Shown: positions 7,356-41,852, numbered from the stretch's first letter. The stretch: 64,000 bases of DNA from an uncultured Gammaproteobacteria bacterium (GCA_964635715.1 CAZWNZ010000001.1:408616-472615), one strand, 5' to 3'. Notes: generated by a model not told the origin, from the letters alone. Numbers and translations: made by a program.

Positions 7356-8033
7356 ATGTCTAAAGTTACAGTTTCACTTGAAGAATTGGTGGATGCCGGA
7401 GCGCACTTCGGACATCAAACTCGCCGATGGAATCCTAAAATGGAGGAGTATATTTATGGTGCTGAAGATGGGGTCCACGTTTTTGATTTAACAAAAACAA
7501 AACCTTTGATAGAAGAAGCTTTGGAGTTTTTGTCAAAATCAGTTAAGGAAGGTAAAAAGGTTTTGATTCTTGGTACGAAGAAACAGATTAAGGAAAAAGT
7601 TGCTGAAGTTGCCGAAAAGGCGGGTGTTTCTTATGTTAACGAAAGATGGCTTGGTGGAACAATTTCTAATTTCAGCCAGATAAAACGATCTATCAGTAAA
7701 ATGGAAGAAATGAAGGAAAACCTTGCAAGTGGGGCTTATTCAAAGTACACCAAGAAGGAAAGACTCTTAATCGATCGTGAGATTACCCGTTTGGAGAAGT
7801 TTTTCGGTGGTGTGAAATCCTTAACCTCTGCTCCCGATATTCTTTTTGTTATTGATGTAAAAAGAGAAGCATCAGCTGTTCGTGAAGCTCACGCCAAAAA
7901 AATTCCAGTTGTCGGTATTGTTGACTCAAACGCAGACCCAGACCTTGTTGATTACCCGATCCCAATGAACGATGATGCAGCTCGTGCTTTGGAATATATT
8001 TTAAGCTTAGTTGCAGAAACAATTTCAAATTGA
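7356..8033 (+). CDS. rpsB: 30S ribosomal protein S2
   Basis: LVDAGAHFGHQTRRWNPKM is the S2 signature. It is followed by tsf. Confidence 0.95.
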   Translation: MSKVTVSLEELVDAGAHFGHQTRRWNPKMEEYIYGAEDGVHVFDLTKTKPLIEEALEFLSKSVKEGKKVLILGTKKQIKEKVAEVAEKAGVSYVNERWLGGTISNFSQIKRSISKMEEMKENLASGAYSKYTKKERLLIDREITRLEKFFGGVKSLTSAPDILFVIDVKREASAVREAHAKKIPVVGIVDSNADPDLVDYPIPMNDDAARALEYILSLVAETISN

Positions 8034-8497
8034 TAAATAAAATGGCAAAAATCGATATTGAATTAATTAAAAAACTTCGTGAGGAAACTGGTGTAGCAAT
8101 TATCCGAATCCGTGAAGTTCTTGAGGAAGTAAAAGGAGACGAAAAGAAAGCTCTGGAAATTTTAAAGAAAGAAGGAATGGCTAAAGCAGAAAAACGAGAA
8201 GGGCGTTTAACGGGTGAGGGTAGAATTTTTGTCTATGCCCATCACACAGGTAAAGTTGTAGGAATTGTAGAACTTCTTTGTGAGACAGATTTTGTTGCCA
8301 GAACAGAACTTTTTGAAACCACCGGCCGTGATCTTGCTATGCAAGCGGCCAGTATGGGTACGGATGATTTTGAAAAACAGGATTTTGTAAAAGACTCCGG
8401 AAAGAAGATAATGGATCTTGTTAAAGAGCTTATTGCCAAGACTGGTGAAAATGTAAAGCTTGGCAGAGTTGAAAGAATAGAACTCGGGAATAAATAG
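8030..8497 (+). CDS. tsf: Elongation factor Ts (short form)
   Basis: The N-terminal UBA-like IKKLREETGVAIIRIREVLEE is present. It overlaps the rpsB stop. Confidence 0.85.
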   Translation: MINKMAKIDIELIKKLREETGVAIIRIREVLEEVKGDEKKALEILKKEGMAKAEKREGRLTGEGRIFVYAHHTGKVVGIVELLCETDFVARTELFETTGRDLAMQAASMGTDDFEKQDFVKDSGKKIMDLVKELIAKTGENVKLGRVERIELGNK

Positions 8498-30399: not shown

Positions 30400-31530
30400 A
30401 TGTCAAAGAAAGATGAAGAGATATTGTTGGCTGATGAACTCAGGAAACGGATAGATAATCTTAAGATAATTGATAAGCCTAGTCCATTTTTTAGGGAGGT
30501 TGCACGAACGGCTGAATGGATGGGTGAGATATTGTTATTTGAGCAACCACTTTTTGCCCTAGACCTTCAAAGTAAAAAGCGAGATAAAGAATCATTGCAG
30601 ATATTGAAGGATATGCACTCCAAAGGCAGAGTCATTTGGTCTGCTATAAAAAAAATACCAATTACTCTTGAAAAGACACGGCCAGAAGTTCAACAATCGC
30701 TTGCGAGTTTGCATCAGTATTACGAAATGCCACACCCTCAGTACGGAATCGGGCTATATCACAGTTTGAGGATAGTGGTTGAGTATCTTATTTCTAGTAA
30801 CAATTCAAAAGGGCTTGAGAAATTTGTAGACAGGAATAACCCCGTTAAGTATCCGAATTTTCGAGGTGAAATGTATGATCTACTAATTGCTTACAATAAG
30901 AAACAGGATTTAATAAAAAAAGAACTCGCCCTTAGTCTTTGGGGTGCTTGGGACAATCTTAAGTATGTAAGCTACCTTGCAGGAATAGATAACGACTATC
31001 CACAACTTGAAGATTGGGCTAAGGTTTTTACAAAGGATGAATACTTTGTACATCTTCACAAAGTATCAGATTACTTATTTGATTGGCTGGTGTTAGGTAA
31101 AAAAGGTGACAAATTAAGTGGTGACCCACTGCTCGAATCTGCTGTTTGGGATAAGAAATTTAATTTTGAAATTGACCCTAACACCGAAATTGATAATGCA
31201 AATTTTGGACAGTATGGAGTAGTTAGGTTTTACCCAGGTAAATCTCCAACTAAAGTGGAAGGTGATAGTAAACTAAACGCAAATCAATTATTTCTTAAAA
31301 AATTGTTTGAAGCTGGCGAGAAAGGTGTATCTAGAAAAGAGCTGGCCGAGTATATGGATATAAGAGAGAATGACATTAAAGCCTATGTTAACGGGGCCGA
31401 TAAAGTTTTTCGAAATAGTTACAAAAAACAAAAAGTTAAAGCAAATATTTACGTATCTGCAGATAGCGAGATAATTAGGTTGATTGTTATACCTGTCGAA
31501 AGTGAGAATAATCAAAATACCGAAGCTTAG
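30400..31530 (+). CDS. Hypothetical protein with C-terminal winged-helix-like region
   Basis: 376 aa. The C-terminus is LFLKKLFEAGEKGVSRKELAEYMDIREND. Confidence 0.45.
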   Translation: MSKKDEEILLADELRKRIDNLKIIDKPSPFFREVARTAEWMGEILLFEQPLFALDLQSKKRDKESLQILKDMHSKGRVIWSAIKKIPITLEKTRPEVQQSLASLHQYYEMPHPQYGIGLYHSLRIVVEYLISSNNSKGLEKFVDRNNPVKYPNFRGEMYDLLIAYNKKQDLIKKELALSLWGAWDNLKYVSYLAGIDNDYPQLEDWAKVFTKDEYFVHLHKVSDYLFDWLVLGKKGDKLSGDPLLESAVWDKKFNFEIDPNTEIDNANFGQYGVVRFYPGKSPTKVEGDSKLNANQLFLKKLFEAGEKGVSRKELAEYMDIRENDIKAYVNGADKVFRNSYKKQKVKANIYVSADSEIIRLIVIPVESENNQNTEA

Positions 31531-31566
31531 CTAATCTTCTTTTTATCTTATAACTAATCTTCTCGC

Positions 31567-31839
31567 TTGTTTTATGCTTCAGGCAAGATGTTAAATGTTA
31601 ATGAAGATAGATGGAAGAGCAAAGATTTTTATTTGAGTTGCGTTATTCGTGCCTCTGGGTTTGAACTCATAACCCTTGAAAGGAAAGAACACGACTTCAG
31701 CGTTTTTGTTTTTGACATTTCTCCTCAAAAGGCAGAAGAAATAATTTCTCTTCACTGGTCTAAACAGTTGAAACTTCCCACCAAGGATTTAGTTGAAGCA
31801 ATCAATGAATTAAGAACAAGGTTAAAAAGTGGAGTCTAA
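31567..31839 (+). CDS. Hypothetical small protein
   Basis: A 90-aa ORF. Confidence 0.35.
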   Translation: MFYASGKMLNVNEDRWKSKDFYLSCVIRASGFELITLERKEHDFSVFVFDISPQKAEEIISLHWSKQLKLPTKDLVEAINELRTRLKSGV

Positions 31840-32038
31840 TATGGAAAATTTAAATGTTATCGAAAAAGCATTGGAACTTTATGACGAAGTCGACAATTTG
31901 GCTAAGGACTGGCTAATAAAAAGTTGGAAACTAAAGGACGAGGATAAGGAGATTGCAAGATTGTATTACCAAAAGGCTTGTAAAAAGCGATTAGAACTAG
32001 CGAAAAGATTGGAGGGATTATGCAACCAGACAAAATAA
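31829..32038 (+). CDS. Hypothetical small protein
   Basis: A 69-aa helical ORF that overlaps its neighbours. Confidence 0.3.
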   Translation: MESNMENLNVIEKALELYDEVDNLAKDWLIKSWKLKDEDKEIARLYYQKACKKRLELAKRLEGLCNQTK

Positions 32039-33351
32039 CATTTGATCCAGCAAAAGATATTAAGGATTCGATTTATGAGATTACTAAAGTTGAAAAAGAA
32101 TGGGAAGAAATAACCTCGGAAGACATACTAAAAGTATTAGGTCAGACAATAAAGAAAGATGATTTTAATAAACTCCTAGTCTTTCTGTGCCAGCTTTTAG
32201 CATATTCGGAAAGTAGTCAGATAAATCTTTCTTTTAATGCTCCAAGCAGTAGTGGCAAAAGCTATTTGGCTTTGGAAATCGCAGACTTATTTCCCAAAGA
32301 AGATGTCCTTAAACTTGGTTATGCTAGCCCGACTTCCTTTTTCCATACAACCAGCGAATATTCCAAAGAAAAGAATGGCTATGTAGTGAATCTTGAAAGG
32401 AAAATTGTGGTTTTTCTTGATATGCCACACTCATTACTTTTACAGCATTTAAGACCGCTTCTAAGCCATGATGAAAAGGAAATATTAGTTAAGATTACTG
32501 ACAAATCAGCCAAGGGGGGAATAAGAACAAAAGACATTTTTATTAGAGGTTATCCTGCAGTTCTTTTTTGTTCGGCAAACTTTAACTTAGATGAACAAGA
32601 GTTAACAAGGTTCATCCTTCTTAGCCCAGAAACCAACCAAGAAAAGATAAGAGAAGCAATTTACGAGCGGGTAAAAAAGGAAGCAGATAAAGAAGGGTAT
32701 TTTAAACTCTTAAACGAAAACCCAGACAGACAAGCCTTGAAACAGAGAATTGTTGATGTCAGAGATTCTCTTGTTAGTAAAATTGATTTAGGTAACCCAG
32801 AAAAATTACTTCAGATGTTCTATGAACGCAATGAGATTCTTAAACCTAGACATTCAAGGGACATTCAACGAATCGCTTCCTTGGCCAAGGCATTTGCCTT
32901 ACTTAACCTTTGGACCCGAGAAAGAGTGGGGGATGCAATTAAGACAAATGAAAAGGACCTTGAAAATGCTTTTAAGATTTGGGACGAGATAAGTATTGCA
33001 CAAGATTTAGGGGTTTCTCCTTATATTCTTAATCTCTACAAAGAAGTTATTGTCCCCGTTTATGAAGAAAAAGGTAAAGCAGGACTAACCAGACAGGAGG
33101 TTTTGAAAAAACATTTTGAGGTTTATGGAAGACATATAGCCGATTGGCAGTTGAGGCAAGAAATAGTGCCAATAATGAAGACTTCTGGACTTATTTCTGA
33201 AGAACAGGACCCGCTTGATAAAAGAAAACTTCTTATTTACCCCCTAGTACAGCTCACTACATCTGGAGCTCAAGAAATAGTGAGTGAGAGGGGGGAGGAG
33301 GGTGTAACAGAAGCTCAAATCGAGGATATTTTTGGAGTAAAACCTATATGA
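32020..33351 (+). CDS. P-loop NTPase, possible primase/helicase-like replication protein
   Basis: A Walker A-like NAPSSSGKSYLALEIADL is present. Walker B-like VVFLDM is present. The C-terminal winged-helix region resembles the phage/plasmid primase C-terminal NTPase. Confidence 0.45.
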   Translation: MQPDKITFDPAKDIKDSIYEITKVEKEWEEITSEDILKVLGQTIKKDDFNKLLVFLCQLLAYSESSQINLSFNAPSSSGKSYLALEIADLFPKEDVLKLGYASPTSFFHTTSEYSKEKNGYVVNLERKIVVFLDMPHSLLLQHLRPLLSHDEKEILVKITDKSAKGGIRTKDIFIRGYPAVLFCSANFNLDEQELTRFILLSPETNQEKIREAIYERVKKEADKEGYFKLLNENPDRQALKQRIVDVRDSLVSKIDLGNPEKLLQMFYERNEILKPRHSRDIQRIASLAKAFALLNLWTRERVGDAIKTNEKDLENAFKIWDEISIAQDLGVSPYILNLYKEVIVPVYEEKGKAGLTRQEVLKKHFEVYGRHIADWQLRQEIVPIMKTSGLISEEQDPLDKRKLLIYPLVQLTTSGAQEIVSERGEEGVTEAQIEDIFGVKPI

Positions 33352-33557
33352 ACAAACCACTTTTACCAATAATTACATTTAAGGATATTGTTTCGGATGG
33401 AAAGAGGGTTGAAACTGCCTATTTTAGGATATTTGAGATAGCGAGGAAAAATATTTTGATGAAAAGGATGTTGACAAATCCAATGTCGCAGAAGTACACT
33501 GAAATACATAATGAAAAATCAATATCTAACAATCGAGGAGGTGGCCAAAATGCTTAG
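33348..33557 (+). CDS. Hypothetical small protein
   Basis: A 69-aa ORF. It partly overlaps the better-supported Xis-like ORF in another frame. Confidence 0.25.
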   Translation: MNKPLLPIITFKDIVSDGKRVETAYFRIFEIARKNILMKRMLTNPMSQKYTEIHNEKSISNNRGGGQNA

Positions 33558-33678
33558 AGTTAATAAAAGAACTGTATATAGATTGGCCGTAAAAGGAGAA
33601 ATTCCAGCTTTCAGGTTTGGCAGGTCTTGGAGGATAGATTCTAATAAGTTGGATGGAATATTTAAGAGAAAGAAATGA
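33511..33678 (+). CDS. Excisionase/AlpA-like HTH DNA-binding protein (55 aa), not in ORF track
   Basis: Translation gives MKNQYLTIEEVAKMLRVNKRTVYRLAVKGEIPAFRFGRSWRIDSNKLDGIFKRKK, a classic Xis/MerR-type HTH_17 fold. Its stop overlaps the recombinase start (ATGA). Confidence 0.6.
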   Translation: MKNQYLTIEEVAKMLRVNKRTVYRLAVKGEIPAFRFGRSWRIDSNKLDGIFKRKK

Positions 33679-35327
33679 AAAGCGATAATCAAATACAGGA
33701 ACCGATGAATGTTGCTCTTTATGCAAGGGTTTCAACTGGTAGGCAGGAGAATGAACAGACCATTGAATCCCAATTAGATGAAGTTAAGAGAAAAATAGCG
33801 GATGATGGTAATACTTTATTACCTCAAAACATCTTTATAGACGATGGATGGAGCGGAGAACTTCTAGCAAGGCCTTCACTTGATAACTTAAGGGATGCAG
33901 TTAAAGATAATAGTTTTGAAGCAGTTTATGTTTATGATAGAGGTAGGCTTTCCAGGACCTTCTTTCACCAGGAGCTTGTTATAAGTGAACTAAGCGATTT
34001 AGGAATCCAATTTATTTCACTTCATGATGTTAAAGCCACAACTCCTGAGGAGAAAGTCTTGCAATCAATGCAGGGGGTATTCCACGAATACGAAAGAATT
34101 AAGATTGCAGAGAGAATGAGAAGGGGAAAAATGTATCACGCAAAGGAAGGGAAAATAATAAATGGTCAGGCTTTGTATGGTTACTCTTATAAGAAAAGGG
34201 AGGATGGAAATGTAGACTACCTTATAAACGATGACGAGGCGGGAGTAGTAAGAAAGATTTGGAATTGGTTTGGAAATGATAATCTAGCCGTTCATACAAT
34301 CCAGAGGAGATTATTTGACCTTAAAATTATGCCCCAGAAGGGTAAATCTGATTTTTGGTCCAAAAGTGTTATTACCAGACTTCTTAAACAGGAAACCTAT
34401 GTGACAGGTAAGGCTTTTTATAATAAATCGGAAGCGGTTGTAGCCAAACACCCGATGAACAATGGTAAGTATAAGAAAGTTAAGAAAAGTAGTAGGAAAG
34501 TAAAGTCTCGTGAAGACTGGATTCCTTTTGATGTCCCCAGAATAATTACAGATTATTCACTTTATGAGAAGGTTCAAAAGAAACTTGAATATAACAGAGT
34601 CTATGCAAACAAAAAATCTAAATACGACTACCTACTTTCTGGTTTAATTTATTGTGGTTGTGGGAACAAAAGAGTTGGGGACGGTTGCAGCAAAAACGGG
34701 CACTTTTATTACAGGTGCATTGATAGGATTAGAAGCGGGGTATACGAGAGGAAATGCAAATCAAGTGGTATAAACGCTGCGATTTTGGATGGTCTGCTCT
34801 GGAAAGAACTAAGAAAAAAGCTTTTTAGTTACCCAATAATGAAGAAATATGCCGAAAAGTGGATTAAATCAGTATCGGTTTTAAGTAGTGAAGACTTGCT
34901 TGAGAAGCGAAGACTTAATGAAATGATAGTAAAGACTACAGAAGAAGAAAATCGTTATTCAAAGGCTTACGGAGTTGGAACTTTAGAATTCGACCAATTC
35001 CAGAATTTAATGAAAGACGCCAAAAAGCGAAGAGTTTCTTATCAAAAACAATTATCAGAATTGGCCAATAAATCGGCAGAAGTTAATGTTCAGATAGAGG
35101 TCGATGAGCTATTAGCGGAAGTGATGAGTGTGGTTAAGGATATAGATTTTAGTGATAAATTTAGGGTAATTCGAGATATAATAGACAAAGTTATCGTAAC
35201 AGAAAGGAGCGGTGCAGAAATATGTGCGCATTTACCATTACCAGTCACAATCACCGAAAAGTTGGGATATGAGCCTGAGCGTAGGGATTGTTGGCTTGCC
35301 AAATGTAGGCAAGAGCACTCTTTTTAA
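33675..35327 (+). CDS. Large serine recombinase (serine integrase)
   Basis: The N-terminal resolvase catalytic domain is VALYARVSTGRQENEQTIESQ. A recombinase domain and a zinc-ribbon domain follow (CGCGNKRVGDGC...YYRC). It has a coiled-coil C-terminus. The 3' end spans attR and overlaps ychF by 59 nt. Confidence 0.85.
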   Translation: MKSDNQIQEPMNVALYARVSTGRQENEQTIESQLDEVKRKIADDGNTLLPQNIFIDDGWSGELLARPSLDNLRDAVKDNSFEAVYVYDRGRLSRTFFHQELVISELSDLGIQFISLHDVKATTPEEKVLQSMQGVFHEYERIKIAERMRRGKMYHAKEGKIINGQALYGYSYKKREDGNVDYLINDDEAGVVRKIWNWFGNDNLAVHTIQRRLFDLKIMPQKGKSDFWSKSVITRLLKQETYVTGKAFYNKSEAVVAKHPMNNGKYKKVKKSSRKVKSREDWIPFDVPRIITDYSLYEKVQKKLEYNRVYANKKSKYDYLLSGLIYCGCGNKRVGDGCSKNGHFYYRCIDRIRSGVYERKCKSSGINAAILDGLLWKELRKKLFSYPIMKKYAEKWIKSVSVLSSEDLLEKRRLNEMIVKTTEEENRYSKAYGVGTLEFDQFQNLMKDAKKRRVSYQKQLSELANKSAEVNVQIEVDELLAEVMSVVKDIDFSDKFRVIRDIIDKVIVTERSGAEICAHLPLPVTITEKLGYEPERRDCWLAKCRQEHSF

Positions 35328-36372
35328 TGCGCTTCTAAAAAAGCAACAGGCTTATGTCGCAAACTTCCCGTTCGCGACGATTGAACCGAATATTGGAATA
35401 GTTCCGGTTCCTGACCCACGCTTGGCCAAGCTCGCAGACGTAGTAAAGAGCTCAGATAATCTTGACCATTTTCCACCGGAAGTCCCGGCTACCGTTCAGT
35501 TTGTAGATATCGCAGGGCTTATCGCTGGTGCTTCAAAAGGCGAGGGATTGGGGAATAAATTCCTAAGTCACATAAGAGAAACAAACGCAATTTGCTACGT
35601 TTTGCGAGCTTTTACCGATCCGGATGTTGTTCGCCAGGGTGTGAAAGAACCGGTTGCTGATTTCGAAGTTCTGGAAACCGAGCTTGCCCTTGCCGATCTT
35701 CAAACTTTGGAAAAACAGAAAGATCCGGGGAATACTCCGGATAAAGATCAGATAAAAAAGTGGCAAACTATCCAGAGATTAAAAAAGACATTAGAAGGCA
35801 GTACCATGGTTCGAACTATCGAACTGTCAGAAGAGGAAAATAAAATAGTTAATGAGTTGGGACTTTTAACGGCAAAACCAATACTTGTTGTGTTAAATGT
35901 TGACGAAAAGCAAGTAGCTAGTAGTCAGAATCTAGAATCTAGTTTTGCGAAGGAAATTGGGGTCGCTGAAAATCAGGTGATAGCCATCTGTGCCAAAACA
36001 GAAAGCGAGCTTTCAGAACTTTCAGAAGATGATCAGAAAATTTACATGCAGGACTTGGGAATTGACAAGTCCGGTCTTGAGAGACTAATTCAGAAAGCTT
36101 TTACAACTCTTGGCCTTGCCACATTTTTAACGGCAGGAGAAAAGGAAGTCAGAGCATGGACTATTCAAGCGGGCATTAACGCTCAGGAGGCGGCTGGGGT
36201 GATTCACACTGATTTTATTAAAAAATTTATCAAAGCCGACGTAGTCAGATTTGAGGAGTTCATTAAATCTGGCGGCTGGAAAGCCGCCCGTGAATTAGGT
36301 AAAGTTCGTTCCGAGGGCCGCGACTACATAATGCAAGATGGGGAAGTTGTGGAATTCAAGATTGGGGCGTAA
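35269..36372 (+). CDS. ychF: Ribosome-binding ATPase YchF (Obg family)
   Basis: MSLSVGIVGLPNVGKSTLFNAL is present. A TGS domain is present. The C-terminal YchF domain is present. The first 5-6 codons are supplied by the element. Confidence 0.9.
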   Translation: MSLSVGIVGLPNVGKSTLFNALLKKQQAYVANFPFATIEPNIGIVPVPDPRLAKLADVVKSSDNLDHFPPEVPATVQFVDIAGLIAGASKGEGLGNKFLSHIRETNAICYVLRAFTDPDVVRQGVKEPVADFEVLETELALADLQTLEKQKDPGNTPDKDQIKKWQTIQRLKKTLEGSTMVRTIELSEEENKIVNELGLLTAKPILVVLNVDEKQVASSQNLESSFAKEIGVAENQVIAICAKTESELSELSEDDQKIYMQDLGIDKSGLERLIQKAFTTLGLATFLTAGEKEVRAWTIQAGINAQEAAGVIHTDFIKKFIKADVVRFEEFIKSGGWKAARELGKVRSEGRDYIMQDGEVVEFKIGA

Positions 36373-37520: not shown

Positions 37521-38753
37521 ATGTCAAGAAGAATTAATTTCGTTAAAGCCAGAAAAATTGTCTTGTCGGCACTTGTTTTGGCAGGCGTTTTTGTCGGTGG
37601 ATATTACCTCGGTATCAACGGCTATAAAGTAGAAGTTAACAAGGCTTTGACAGTAACAATCAACAGACGAACCCCCGACGATAAAAATGTTGACATGAGT
37701 CTTTTTTGGCAAGTTTGGGATCTTATTAGCGAAAAATACTACGACAAATCAAAACTTGTTCCTTCGCAGATGATTTATGGAGCAATTGAAGGAATGGTAT
37801 CTTCGGTCGGTGATCCTTACACAACATTTCTTATTCCTTCACAGAACAAAGTAGTTAACGAGGATTTAAATGGATCATTCGGCGGAGTCGGTATAGAAAT
37901 TGGTTATAAAGACGGTTACTTGGCAGTAATAGCACCGCTTCCCGGGACACCGGCAGACAGAGCCGGGGTTAAAGCCGGGGACTATATTGTAAAAATTACA
38001 GACACAATAAAAGGTGTTGATCTGGACAGTTCTACTATTAGCACAAACGAAGCTGTAACCTACATCAGGGGTGTTGCGGGAACAAAAGTCACATTAACAC
38101 TTATGAGAGATGGTGTAGACGAACCGATTGTGGTTGATCTTGTTAGGGAGAAGATAGATGTTCCTTCGGTTACGTTATCTTGGGTAGGTGAAGGTTCGGA
38201 TGTGGCAAATATTGAAATAAGTAAATTTGGATCAGAAACAAAGGGCGAGTGGGATAGTGTTGTGAGCGAAATATTAAGTAACGAAAACGTTAAAGGAATA
38301 ATTATTGATCTTAGAAACAATCCTGGAGGATATATGCAGGCAGCAATAGATTTAGCTTCTGACTTTGTTTTGAATGGAACAACAATAGTAATTCAGGATA
38401 GTGGCAACAATGATAAAGAAGAATACAAGTCAATGACTTTACCTCGGCTTGAAGACTATCAAACAGTGGTATTAATCAATGAAGGCAGCGCTTCAGCATC
38501 TGAAATTCTGGCAGGTGCATTAAGAGATCAGGTAGGAATAAAATTAGTAGGTGATAAAAGTTTTGGCAAGGGAACAATTCAGGAACCAGTTGATATGGTC
38601 GGAGGGAGCGGGGTACACATAACTACTGCCAAATGGCTGACACCCAAAGGGACGTGGGTTCATGATTCAGGGTTAGTTCCCGATCTGGAAATTGCCAACC
38701 CGGACGATACTGAGGTAGATGAGCAGCTGGAAGCTGCGATTGAACTTTTTTAA
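37521..38753 (+). CDS. Carboxyl-terminal processing protease (S41 family) with PDZ domain
   Basis: An N-terminal TM is present. A PDZ domain is present ([11 protein letters not shown]). The S41 motifs [10 protein letters not shown] and [13 protein letters not shown] are present. Confidence 0.85.
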
Positions 38754-39448
38754 GAAGAAATATTTTTGGTAAGTTCGATTATACGGTCAAGATCTCCATC
38801 AACTATTACTTCAAGCTTCCCCCAGCTTTTGCCAATTCTGTGATCGGTAACCCTGTCTTGAGGAAAATTGTAAGTGCGGATTTTTTCGGATCTCATTCCA
38901 CGGCCGATTACACTTCTGTATCCGGCCATTGTTTTTTCTTTCTCGGCTTCCTGACGCTCCCAAAGGCGTGATCTCAAGAGAGAGAGGGCTATTTGTCTGT
39001 TTTGTTCCTGGAAGCGTTCCTCGCGGGCTTCTACGACGATACCGGTGGGTTTATGAACAAGTCTCACGGCAGTGGAAACTTTATTAACATTTTGGCCTCC
39101 GTGGCCTCCAGCCCGGGTAAATTGCCATTCCAAATCATTTTGGTTGATTTGGATTTCATCTTCTTTAACTTCCGGTAAAACTACAATAGTAGCAGTGGAA
39201 GTGTGTATTCTGCCTCTTTTTTCAGTAACCGGAACCCTTTGGACTCGGTGAACTCCCGACTCGTTTTTTAGAAGATCAAAAACTTGTGGGCCGGATATCC
39301 TGATTGTTTTTTCATCGATCAAAGCAACTTTCAAGTTTTTCTTTGTAGCATAGCGGATATACATACGTAGGAGATCGGATCCCCAAAGTTTGGCTTCATC
39401 ACCACCCGTGGCACCACGAATTTCAATAAACGCTGTTTGATTATCCAT
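38750..39448 (-). CDS. prfA: Peptide chain release factor 1-like, lacking N-terminal domain 1
   Basis: A PVT tripeptide (RF1 type) is present, then [14 protein letters not shown]. The GGQ motif is present ([19 protein letters not shown]). It starts at the position equivalent to E. coli RF1 residue ~112. There is an in-frame stop 21 nt upstream. Confidence 0.8.
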
Positions 39449-39538
39449 ATTTGTCTAGTTACCAGTAATCAGTTTCCAGTTGTCAGTCAGTTAATTATTT
39501 AATTAGTTACTAACTGATTACTGAATACTGATAACTAT

Positions 39539-39850
39539 CTAACTAGCTTGAGATCGAAGATCACTCAAGCTTTCTGGTCTTTCTGCTTCTTCCTGAAGTC
39601 TCTTTTGTTCTTTAAGTTTGCGTTTTTCGCTCTTACTGATATGTGTAGTGGCTTTAGCCATTTTAGCTTTGAACGCATCGACACGTCCTGCTGTGTCAAC
39701 AAACTTCATTTGTCCGGTATAAAAAGGATGACATGCGGAACAAACTTCAACATGAATTTCCGGAAAGGTGGCTCCTGTTGTGAATACGTTTCCGCAGGCA
39801 CAAACAACTTTTGCCTCCGAAAACCATTTTGGATGGATTGTTGCTTTCAT
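39539..39850 (-). CDS. rpmE: 50S ribosomal protein L31 with Lys-rich C-terminal extension
   Basis: MKATIHPKW...CACGN...[10 protein letters not shown] is present. The preferred start is the second Met. Confidence 0.8.
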
Positions 39851-39965
39851 AGAAGTGTATTTTATCAAATATAGACCAATAATTCAAAGCTCAAAAATAA
39901 TAGCTATAACTTAAATCTAAAAACAATAATATAAGTTATTAAATGTTAACAATGACTATTAATTT

Positions 39966-40967: not shown

Positions 40968-41852
40968 TTAAGGTAGAAGGTCGATAATGCGGTCAATTCC
41001 GAATGAAAATCCGACTGCAGGAATATCGCGCCCTGCAAACATTCCGATCAAGTTGTCATAGCGACCGCCGGCTCCGATCGTAAGCTTTTCGGTTTTGTTC
41101 AATTTAAGTTCATAAACGGTTGAAGTGTAGTAATCCAAACCTCGGGCGAGATATGGATTAAAAACAAAATCGGTTCCTTCTTTAAATCCTTTATTTTTAA
41201 GTTCTGCAAAAATTTGAGTTAATCTTTCGGTTTTGGGTTCTTTTGAAAGTTTTTCCAAAATATTTTTTCCTACAAGTTTTTCTACTTCCCCTTGTCCGAT
41301 CTTATCAATTTTGTCGATAATTCTAACTTGATCCTGTGTTATGCCTAGTTTATCAAATATCTTTCGGTCATTGATTTGAATGTATGCATCGTTTAGGTCG
41401 ATCGCTCTGACTCCTTCAACTGCCGCAGCAATAACTTGTACATCTTCTTTAAAATCACTTGAACCAACAGTATCAAGATCGAATTGAGTAAATTCTCTGC
41501 GTCTGCCTCTTTGCGGATTGTCCGCACGGAAAGATTGGCCTATTTGATATCTTGAAAATGTCGGTTTTAGAAGGCCTAAGTTATTGGCAATAAAACGGGC
41601 TAGGGGAACGGTGAGATCGTATCTTAGTGCAAGCTTTCGGCCTCCTTTATCCTCGAATGTATAAACCAATTTTTCATCCTCGCCGTATTTACCCAATAAG
41701 GTTTCTGCAAACTCTACAGTTGGGGTTTCGAGCGGGACAAAGCCGTATTTTTCAAGCACGGGGACAATAGCGTTTATCATAAAACGCCTCTTTTTGGTTT
41801 CCTCCGGCATAATGTCACCGAACCCTTTTGGTGTAACTGGTCCTTTTTGCAT
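40968..41852 (-). CDS. hisS: Histidyl-tRNA synthetase catalytic core lacking the anticodon-binding domain (294 aa)
   Basis: The HisRS motifs PKGFGD and LRYDLTVPLARF are present. Motif 2 is FRADNPQRGRRREFTQFDLD. Motif 3 is GAGGRYDNL. The ORF ends right after GFSFGIDRIIDL with no downstream continuation. Confidence 0.75.
   Translation of the reverse strand: MQKGPVTPKGFGDIMPEETKKRRFMINAIVPVLEKYGFVPLETPTVEFAETLLGKYGEDEKLVYTFEDKGGRKLALRYDLTVPLARFIANNLGLLKPTFSRYQIGQSFRADNPQRGRRREFTQFDLDTVGSSDFKEDVQVIAAAVEGVRAIDLNDAYIQINDRKIFDKLGITQDQVRIIDKIDKIGQGEVEKLVGKNILEKLSKEPKTERLTQIFAELKNKGFKEGTDFVFNPYLARGLDYYTSTVYELKLNKTEKLTIGAGGRYDNLIGMFAGRDIPAVGFSFGIDRIIDLLP

Follow-up and report, generated by a model that had tools for sequence, protein, structure and literature searches.

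A 232-residue release factor 1 predicted to lack domain 1, encoded beside rpmE in Woesebacteria-type Microgenomates

Between the gene for ribosomal protein bL31 (rpmE) and a convergent gene for an S41 protease, a 64,000-nucleotide stretch of DNA deposited under the name of an uncultured Gammaproteobacteria bacterium (GCA_964635715.1, CAZWNZ010000001.1:408616-472615; the whole stretch is referred to here as the window) carries a short open reading frame (ORF) on the minus strand for a homologue of peptide chain release factor 1 (RF1, gene prfA). The frame has 232 codons, opens with ATG, encodes a protein ending in ISS and closes with a TAA at 38750..38752, where the protease stop overlaps it by 4 nucleotides (nt) and so sets the 3′ limit of prfA, an arrangement that is the same in relatives. 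The features of the locus are collected in Table 1.

Table 1. Features of the rpmE-prfA locus, in positions of the window (aa, amino acids).
Feature	Coordinates	Strand	Evidence
prfA, positional orthologue; 232-aa RF1 of domains 2, 3 and 4 only	38750..39448	-	ORF translation, Pfam, NCBIfam, PDB
TGGDEA, codons 13-18, N-terminus of helix alpha5	39395..39412	-	G15, G16 and E18 invariant in the 105-sequence alignment
PVT, codons 73-75, RF1-type PxT 'anticodon' tripeptide	39224..39232	-	P73 and T75 invariant in the same alignment
GGQ, codons 117-119, peptidyl-tRNA hydrolysis motif	39092..39100	-	G117, G118 and Q119 invariant in the same alignment
rpmE-prfA spacer, non-coding, one long imperfect hairpin	39449..39538	-	stops in all frames; minimum free energy of folding
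rpmE (ribosomal protein bL31), adjoining upstream, co-oriented	39539..39868	-	Pfam Ribosomal_L31 at residues 7-69; NCBIfam L31 equivalogs
S41 (CtpA/CtpB-like) protease, convergent with prfA	37521..38753	+	Pfam Peptidase_S41, PDZ, CtpB_N-like

The short protein was compared with profile and structure databases. The Pfam RF-1 domain, which holds the GGQ motif, is whole (profile positions 2-116 of 116, E = 2.8e-37), while the PCRF profile is matched at positions 98-194 of 194 only, its first half, corresponding to the N-terminal helical domain 1, being missing. The two NCBIfam prfA equivalogs are entered late as well, at profile position 102 or 110, and are then followed to their ends, with scores of 310.1 bits for NF001859 (cut-off 400) and 294.8 bits for TIGR00019 (cut-off 423.25), ahead of prfB at 209.4 bits (TIGR00020, cut-off 370), PrfH at 74.6 (TIGR03072, cut-off 166.65) and ArfB at 55.6 (NF006718, cut-off 100). 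When phmmer was run against the PDB, ORF residues 1-229 aligned with residues 102-341 of the 354 in Thermus thermophilus RF1, and residues 2-225 with 107-342 of the 360 in Escherichia coli RF1; chains of RF1 scored 198-240 bits and those of RF2 124-137. These alignment boundaries imply that the first strand of domain 2 is exactly where the protein starts, with domain 1 and the linker absent. Judged by its scores, the short RF1 resembles RF1 much more than it does RF2, PrfH or ArfB. Nor does it read as an RF2, since its tripeptide is PVT instead of SPF and its prfB score lies below the cut-off for that family.

The elements associated with stop-codon reading and catalysis are of the RF1 type. 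The TGGDEA sequence lies at the tip of helix alpha5, which we take, from established structures of RF1 on the ribosome, to be the part of RF1 by which the stop codon's U1 is read. The PVT tripeptide is followed soon afterwards by GRIHTST (residues 79-85), and the catalytic motif is contained in GGHGGQ (residues 114-119). Using the same 105-sequence alignment in which invariance was scored, AlphaFold2 gave a model with a mean predicted local distance difference test score (pLDDT) of 87.4 and a predicted template-modelling score (pTM) of 0.73. In a Foldseek search of the PDB with this model, ribosome-bound RF1 ranked first (TMq 0.84-0.87, root-mean-square deviation about 3 Å over about 242 columns), whereas the compact crystal forms of free RF1 fitted poorly (TMq about 0.55, root-mean-square deviation 14-15 Å). 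The short RF1 is thus predicted to be a complete unit of domains 2, 3 and 4, in an extended shape like that of the ribosome-bound factor.

These results bear on an earlier reading of this DNA, made from the sequence alone (the original prediction), which had described an RF1 homologue lacking its entire domain 1. It placed the start of the frame at the equivalent of RF1 residue ~112, which is about right given the phmmer starts at 107 in E. coli and 102 in T. thermophilus, and it correctly saw that PVT and GGQ are retained. A class I factor of 232 aa is indeed atypical, full-length RF1 having 350-360, and the comparison it had proposed with RF1, RF2 and ArfB profiles came out in favour of RF1 (310 bits for prfA, 209 for prfB and 56 for ArfB). 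Its remark that domain 1 normally touches the L11 stalk and RF3 agrees with the literature, in which this domain touches L11's N-terminal domain and domain 3 of RF3 (PMC3677378).

The gap between rpmE and prfA is exactly 90 nt long, and TAA, TAG and TGA stops close all three of its frames. The nearest in-frame stop before the prfA ATG is a TAG 9 nt upstream (39455..39457), with more stops in that frame, all TAA, at distances of 45, 57 and 72 nt. An N-terminal extension reached through another frame or another genetic code was considered and is ruled out by the stops of all three kinds in the three spacer frames. At this point the original prediction needs a correction: the TGA that it placed in frame 21 nt upstream begins 23 nt before the ATG, in another frame, a slip that leaves its conclusion intact, because domain 1 is still not encoded at the locus, as the partial PCRF match, the start of the alignments and the closed upstream frames all indicate. 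Its description of the gap as repeat-filled and non-coding is borne out, and the sequencing error or programmed frameshift by which it might have been overturned is excluded by the closed frames and by the fact that in relatives rpmE fills the upstream space.

The repeat in question is a single long hairpin. A sequence of about 92 nt spanning the spacer folds with a free energy of -37 kcal/mol (z = -7.07; none of 200 shuffled sequences was as stable), its base being formed by pairing of the rpmE stop region with sequence that ends a few nucleotides before the prfA ATG, and it includes a perfect 12-nt inverted repeat. The window holds no second copy of this hairpin, which has neither a U-run nor an Rfam match, and Rfam and tRNA scans returned nothing near the locus. 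Since the spacer measures 90 nt here and 5-17 nt in relatives, the hairpin is a palindromic insertion peculiar to this genome. The tight spacing in relatives suggests translational coupling of rpmE and prfA, which the insertion may affect. As for rpmE itself, its true start is likely the ATG at 39850 (MKATIHPKW), and the bL31 protein, of about 103-108 aa, consists of the L31 domain to about residue 70 and, after it, about 35 aa of C-terminal tail rich in Lys and Glu; the L31 proteins of relatives have 102-117 aa, and this tail seems to be conserved.

To place the short RF1 among its relatives, we took as its closest set the best 120 of more than 8000 database hits. All of these are 230-244 aa long and share 81-87% identity with it. 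Many independent assemblies contributed to the set, contigs of 0.77-1.08 Mb among them, and the named ones are Candidatus Woesebacteria, Microgenomates or Patescibacteria; database names for the proteins include 'PCRF domain-containing protein', 'peptide chain release factor-like protein' and 'peptide chain release factor 1'. Of the 120, 105 have no more than 14-16 residues ahead of GGDEA, and the longer N-termini among the rest look like upstream start calls. A strict PxT pattern is found in 112 of the best 120, with a variable middle residue (PVT in 58, PTT in 35, others in 19), and HGGQNVN in 119.

Gene order is conserved along with the protein. The series HisRS-like, EamA, rpmE, prfA, S41 protease, rpsR, ssb, rpsF and ychF is common to the window and its relatives, and is found in the complete Woesebacteria chromosome CP066686.1, in JBEKNE010000001.1 and in JGI and Logan contigs, where prfA encodes 231-233 aa. 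Adjacency of rpmE and prfA is kept in all relatives examined (L001-L006 and L150-L153), with gaps of 5-17 nt and in-frame stops 3-30 nt upstream of prfA, so that with rpmE this close there is no space for a domain 1. Placing prfA beside rpmE resembles what we take to be the rpmE-tdk-prfA order of Bacillus subtilis. On the evidence of these aligned sequences and loci, the domain-1 truncation is a conserved feature of the lineage under purifying selection.

Among representatives clustered at 50% identity, the nearest to the short RF1 are themselves short or shortened, and ordinary RF1s of 350-360 aa follow at no more than 56% identity. The number of residues ahead of the GGxEA motif forms a series: 16 in a protein of 232 aa (P0126), 17 in one of 235 aa (P0124), 31 in an Amesbacteria protein of 256 aa (P0121), 40 in one of 269 aa (P0142), 59 in one of 306 aa (P0130) and 82 in one of 303 aa (P0122), compared with about 116-118 in full-length RF1. 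From these sequences the loss of domain 1 looks graded. The P0122 protein keeps a helical domain-1 remnant of about 65 residues and its gene lies in the same HisRS/EamA/rpmE/prfA context; because this longer RF1 occupies the same rpmE-adjacent locus, the 232-aa gene is the positional orthologue of prfA. The short family has in addition lost 10 residues of a domain-2 hairpin, the distance from GGxEA to GxHRV being 50 residues as against 60 in 63 of the 70 full-length representatives, and this deletion is common to P0121, P0122, P0124 and P0126.

Turning to stop-codon use, the 68 ORFs in the window that reach 100 aa and do not overlap one another end in TAA (42), TAG (14) and TGA (12), from which it follows that both RF1 and RF2 activities are needed and that the standard code applies. 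When the window was searched by tblastn with the short ORF, E. coli RF1 (an approximate sequence used as bait only) and the domain-1 regions of four RF1 proteins of the candidate phyla radiation (CPR), no RF2, second RF1 or free-standing domain-1-like ORF was found; the 20-kb loci of relatives likewise contain no second release factor gene, and prmC was not found downstream of prfA at the locus. The genes that neighbour prfB on a Microgenomates contig (ftsE, ftsX, PcsB-like, tsaE and others) are all absent from the window.

RF2 was found in the wider group. A scan of one genome per species with the pattern GGQNVNK...IRSYV matched Microgenomates Gr01-1014_16, Roizmanbacteria (CP066689.1), Collierbacteria, Beckwithbacteria and Daviesbacteria, in each of which RF2 is encoded by one ORF free of frameshifts, has 335-367 aa and includes the whole of domain 1; the Collierbacteria RF2, which has SPF, scores 459 against the prfB cut-off of 370. 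A profile of the RF2s from these five groups, followed by one 'Woesebacteria' RF2, retrieved 194 further RF2 proteins of 324-430 aa with a median of 134 residues ahead of GGxEA, entries named Amesbacteria and Woesebacteria among them. As far as these sequences go, RF2 in the Microgenomates sampled is a factor that keeps domain 1, and RF1 of the short clade is one that does not. The check for prfB that had been proposed at the outset was thus answered in part, the gene having been found at full length in related Microgenomates but never tied to a genome that carries the short RF1.

Several observations on RF2 stand apart from this. The Microgenomates genes (L033, L047, L056, L119, L121 and P0274-P0467) are uninterrupted ORFs with no programmed +1 frameshift site, and on one Microgenomates contig (L154, 6001-10650) prfB is followed by a 180-aa ORF, ftsE, ftsX and a PcsB-like peptidase gene, which resembles the prfB-ftsE-ftsX linkage of Actinobacteria and Firmicutes. 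In 193 of the 194 sequences the motif reads SPF....LRQTSF, and GGQNVNKV is shared with the RF1 of the lineage; we take the Gln of LRQTSF to sit where the RF2 consensus RRHTSF has the His that stacks on the stop codon. A pattern of the form SPFD...RRHTSF therefore misses the Microgenomates RF2, but 23 contigs of the IMG/VR viral collection (L007-L029), some of 180-400 kb, match it exactly, which suggests RF2 genes on large phage or on misclassified IMG/VR contigs. The RF2s of Paceibacterota/Parcubacteria and Saccharibacteria (L031, L061, L067, L071, L084, L086, L093, L122, L128, L129, L142, L144 and L145) are only about 285-310 aa long, GxGGxE being reached after some 60 residues instead of about 130, as counted from uncurated ORF starts. 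Roughly half of the RF2 domain 1 would thus be missing in those CPR groups, mirroring the RF1 loss in Microgenomates.

In light of the sequence comparisons and the predicted structure, we consider it probable that the window encodes a natural, domain-1-less RF1, the product of the gene at the orthologous prfA position in Woesebacteria-type Microgenomates of the CPR, which terminates translation at UAA and UAG without contacts to L11 or RF3. Evolution would have removed the three-helix domain 1, the linker and the 10 residues of the domain-2 hairpin, leaving superdomain 2/4 for decoding and domain 3 with its GGQ. Such a factor would enter the A site, docking by domains 2/4 and 3 only, and read UAA and UAG through the tip of alpha5 (TGGDEA), the PxT tripeptide (PVT) and RIHTS; it would then open, bringing GGQ to the peptidyl-transferase centre for hydrolysis of peptidyl-tRNA as in canonical RF1. 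Without domain 1 there would be no contact to the N-terminal domain of L11 or to RF3, so exit from the ribosome would be spontaneous or driven by other factors, recycling would proceed without RF3, and UGA would be left to the separate RF2 with its retained domain 1. Observed directly are the structure of the gene, its conservation and synteny, the kept motifs, the predicted fold and the full-length RF2 of related Microgenomates; from these we infer the release activity, codon specificity, RF3 independence and sole-RF1 status of the short RF1. The wider claim, that the sole RF1 of Woesebacteria, Amesbacteria and allied Microgenomates lacks domain 1 while RF2 keeps it, so that termination by RF1 at UAG and UAA would permanently lack contacts to the L11 stalk and RF3, we favour by a small margin only.

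Published biochemistry makes such a factor plausible. As a module, domain 1 is flexible and only loosely attached (PMC1586002); it is dispensable for peptide release in vitro, and truncated RF1 works in vivo (PMC1586002, summarising Mora et al. 2003 and Vestergaard et al. 2005). It is required to stimulate nucleotide exchange on RF3, and small genomes lack prfC (PMC1586002). Together with the contacts mapped for domain 1 (PMC3677378), these facts suggest that the short RF1 is best read as a working UAA/UAG factor.

A number of points weigh against this interpretation. The short RF1 falls below both curated prfA equivalog cut-offs (310 against 400 and 295 against 423 bits), so that by NCBI's rule the name RF1 is not given; the deficit corresponds to the roughly 100 missing profile positions. 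It is possible that a second, full-length prfA lies elsewhere in the genome, the search having covered the 64-kb window and the 20-kb loci of relatives. According to a reviewer in PMC1586002, E. coli ribosomes without L11 do not support RF1 activity, which makes the loss of the L11-contacting domain not obviously neutral. No Shine-Dalgarno sequence is visible ahead of the prfA ATG, and the stable hairpin that ends a few nucleotides before it could limit expression. Finally, comparison of the RF1 and RF2 hit lists matched no RF2 to a contig bearing a short RF1, the two sets of hits coming from the same candidate phyla (Amesbacteria and Woesebacteria) but from different contigs and assemblies.

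The strongest competing explanation is that the short gene is a specialised paralogue with a side role such as ribosome rescue, the full-length prfA being elsewhere. Other natural release factor homologues without domain 1, PrfH and ArfB, are rescue factors, their profiles match the short RF1 in part, and the sub-threshold prfA score would fit this idea too. The partial matches, however, cover the GGQ domain only (75 bits against 167 for PrfH and 56 against 100 for ArfB), while PxT, the alpha5 tip, RIHTS and a complete decoding domain, which PrfH alters and ArfB lacks, are all kept. The rpmE-adjacent locus, retained in all relatives examined, holds a 303-aa RF1 in one of them; no RtcB neighbour is present in the window or at the relatives' loci, no second release factor gene was found across the same DNA, and TAG stops are in use in the window. 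We therefore regard a paralogue as unlikely.

A gene split in two, with domain 1 made from a separate ORF and joining the short RF1 in trans, would accord with the loose attachment of this module (PMC1586002), and a 123-aa ORF without Pfam hits does follow prfA in CP066686.1. That ORF is missing from the window and from three relatives (L002-L004), tblastn with the domain-1 regions of the four CPR RF1s and of E. coli RF1 found nothing in the window, and the stepwise shortening (about 82, 59, 40, 31 and 14-17 residues before GGxEA) fits erosion, not fission, which makes this arrangement very improbable. An artefact or decaying gene, whether through an error in sequencing or assembly, through a frameshift or recoding of a stop, or through pseudogenisation in recent times, could point to the genome-specific 90-nt hairpin insert, but it can be dismissed in view of the stops of all three kinds in every spacer frame, the use of TGA, TAG and TAA as stops in the window, which leaves no place for recoding, the intact catalytic and decoding residues of the 120 closest relatives at matching length, and an rpmE that ends 5-17 nt upstream in relatives.

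The predicted domain-1-less RF1 can also be set against known systems. Canonical RF1 (TIGR00019/NF001859; E. coli, T. thermophilus and Thermotoga maritima) aligns with it end to end over domains 2-4 at about 45-50% identity and 198-240 bits, has TGGDEA, PxT, RIHTS and GGQ in common with it, and in its ribosome-bound form matches the predicted fold; the short form differs by the absence of the ~105-residue domain 1, the linker and the 10 hairpin residues. ArfB/ICT1-type rescue hydrolases share the GGQ domain and the lack of domain 1. In ArfB domains 2/4, which recognise the codon, are missing and a basic C-terminal tail is used, whereas these domains are complete in the short RF1, of which the ArfB profile covers residues 97-132 only. 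Truncated E. coli RF1 and RF2 have the same architecture of domains 2-4 but are laboratory constructs in an RF3-bearing organism (Mora et al. 2003; Vestergaard et al. 2005; via PMC1586002), while the short RF1 is natural, conserved in a whole lineage and further shortened in domain 2. PrfH (RF-H, TIGR03072) is similar in size (231 aa in a chain of PDB 9mor) and is likewise a natural class I homologue that keeps GGQ without domain 1; yet its decoding region is altered and an RtcB-like partner gene always lies upstream of it (PMC1586002), whereas the short RF1 has RF1-type decoding motifs, is covered by the PrfH profile at residues 97-193 only, and has rpmE as its upstream gene in the window and in all relatives.

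Elsewhere in the window, other translation genes are shortened. The histidyl-tRNA synthetase (HisRS; 40968-41852, minus strand, 293 aa) scores 287.1 bits with hisS against a cut-off of 286.75 and 149 bits with hisZ, and has no anticodon-binding domain; its 302-aa orthologues in L001-L004 look alike, while L006, the relative with the 303-aa RF1, has a HisRS of 409 aa with an HGTP_anticodon domain. On these sequences, the lineage may have lost a domain here for a second time. Elongation factor EF-Ts (8030-8497, plus strand, 155 aa) appears to be another minimised translation factor, matching positions 1-145 of 293 in the tsf profile at 90 bits, below the cut-off of 104, and positions 3-77 of 204 in Pfam EF_TS; RRF (184 aa) and S2 beside it are full length. 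A gene for a large serine recombinase (33675-35327; Resolvase, Recombinase and Zn_ribbon_recom) abuts and overlaps the called start of ychF (35212-36372) and has ORFs without Pfam hits upstream of it (30400-33557), and 30400-35327 is probably an integrated mobile element inserted in an otherwise conserved gene order.

To our knowledge, few proteins of bacterial translation are as conserved as the class I release factors, and their four-domain plan is usually taken as universal. Our literature search found no paper on a natural RF1 without domain 1 and turned up only PrfH, and the main survey of ribosome reduction in the CPR does not mention release factors. While known biochemistry makes the short RF1 plausible, what stands out is a lineage-wide loss in an essential, near-universal factor and the asymmetry between RF1 and RF2. 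That RF1 is stripped and RF2 intact in the Microgenomates sampled matches the remark of a reviewer that domain 1 apparently matters more for RF2 than for RF1 (PMC1586002). Because the short proteins fall under the prfA thresholds, marker-gene and completeness schemes that use the prfA model may score prfA as missing in this lineage. If the interpretation is right, a translation factor would join the slimmed ribosomal components of the CPR (PMC9297842), and a lineage living on a domain-1-less RF1 would match in nature what the truncation experiments did in E. coli, in which case docking to the L11 stalk and RF3-assisted recycling would be dispensable for RF1 in living cells. Taken together with the short RF2s of Parcubacteria and Saccharibacteria, the short RF1s would suggest that domain 1 is eroding independently across the CPR, perhaps along with the loss of RF3, and they would offer a natural system in which to ask what domain 1 and RF3 do.

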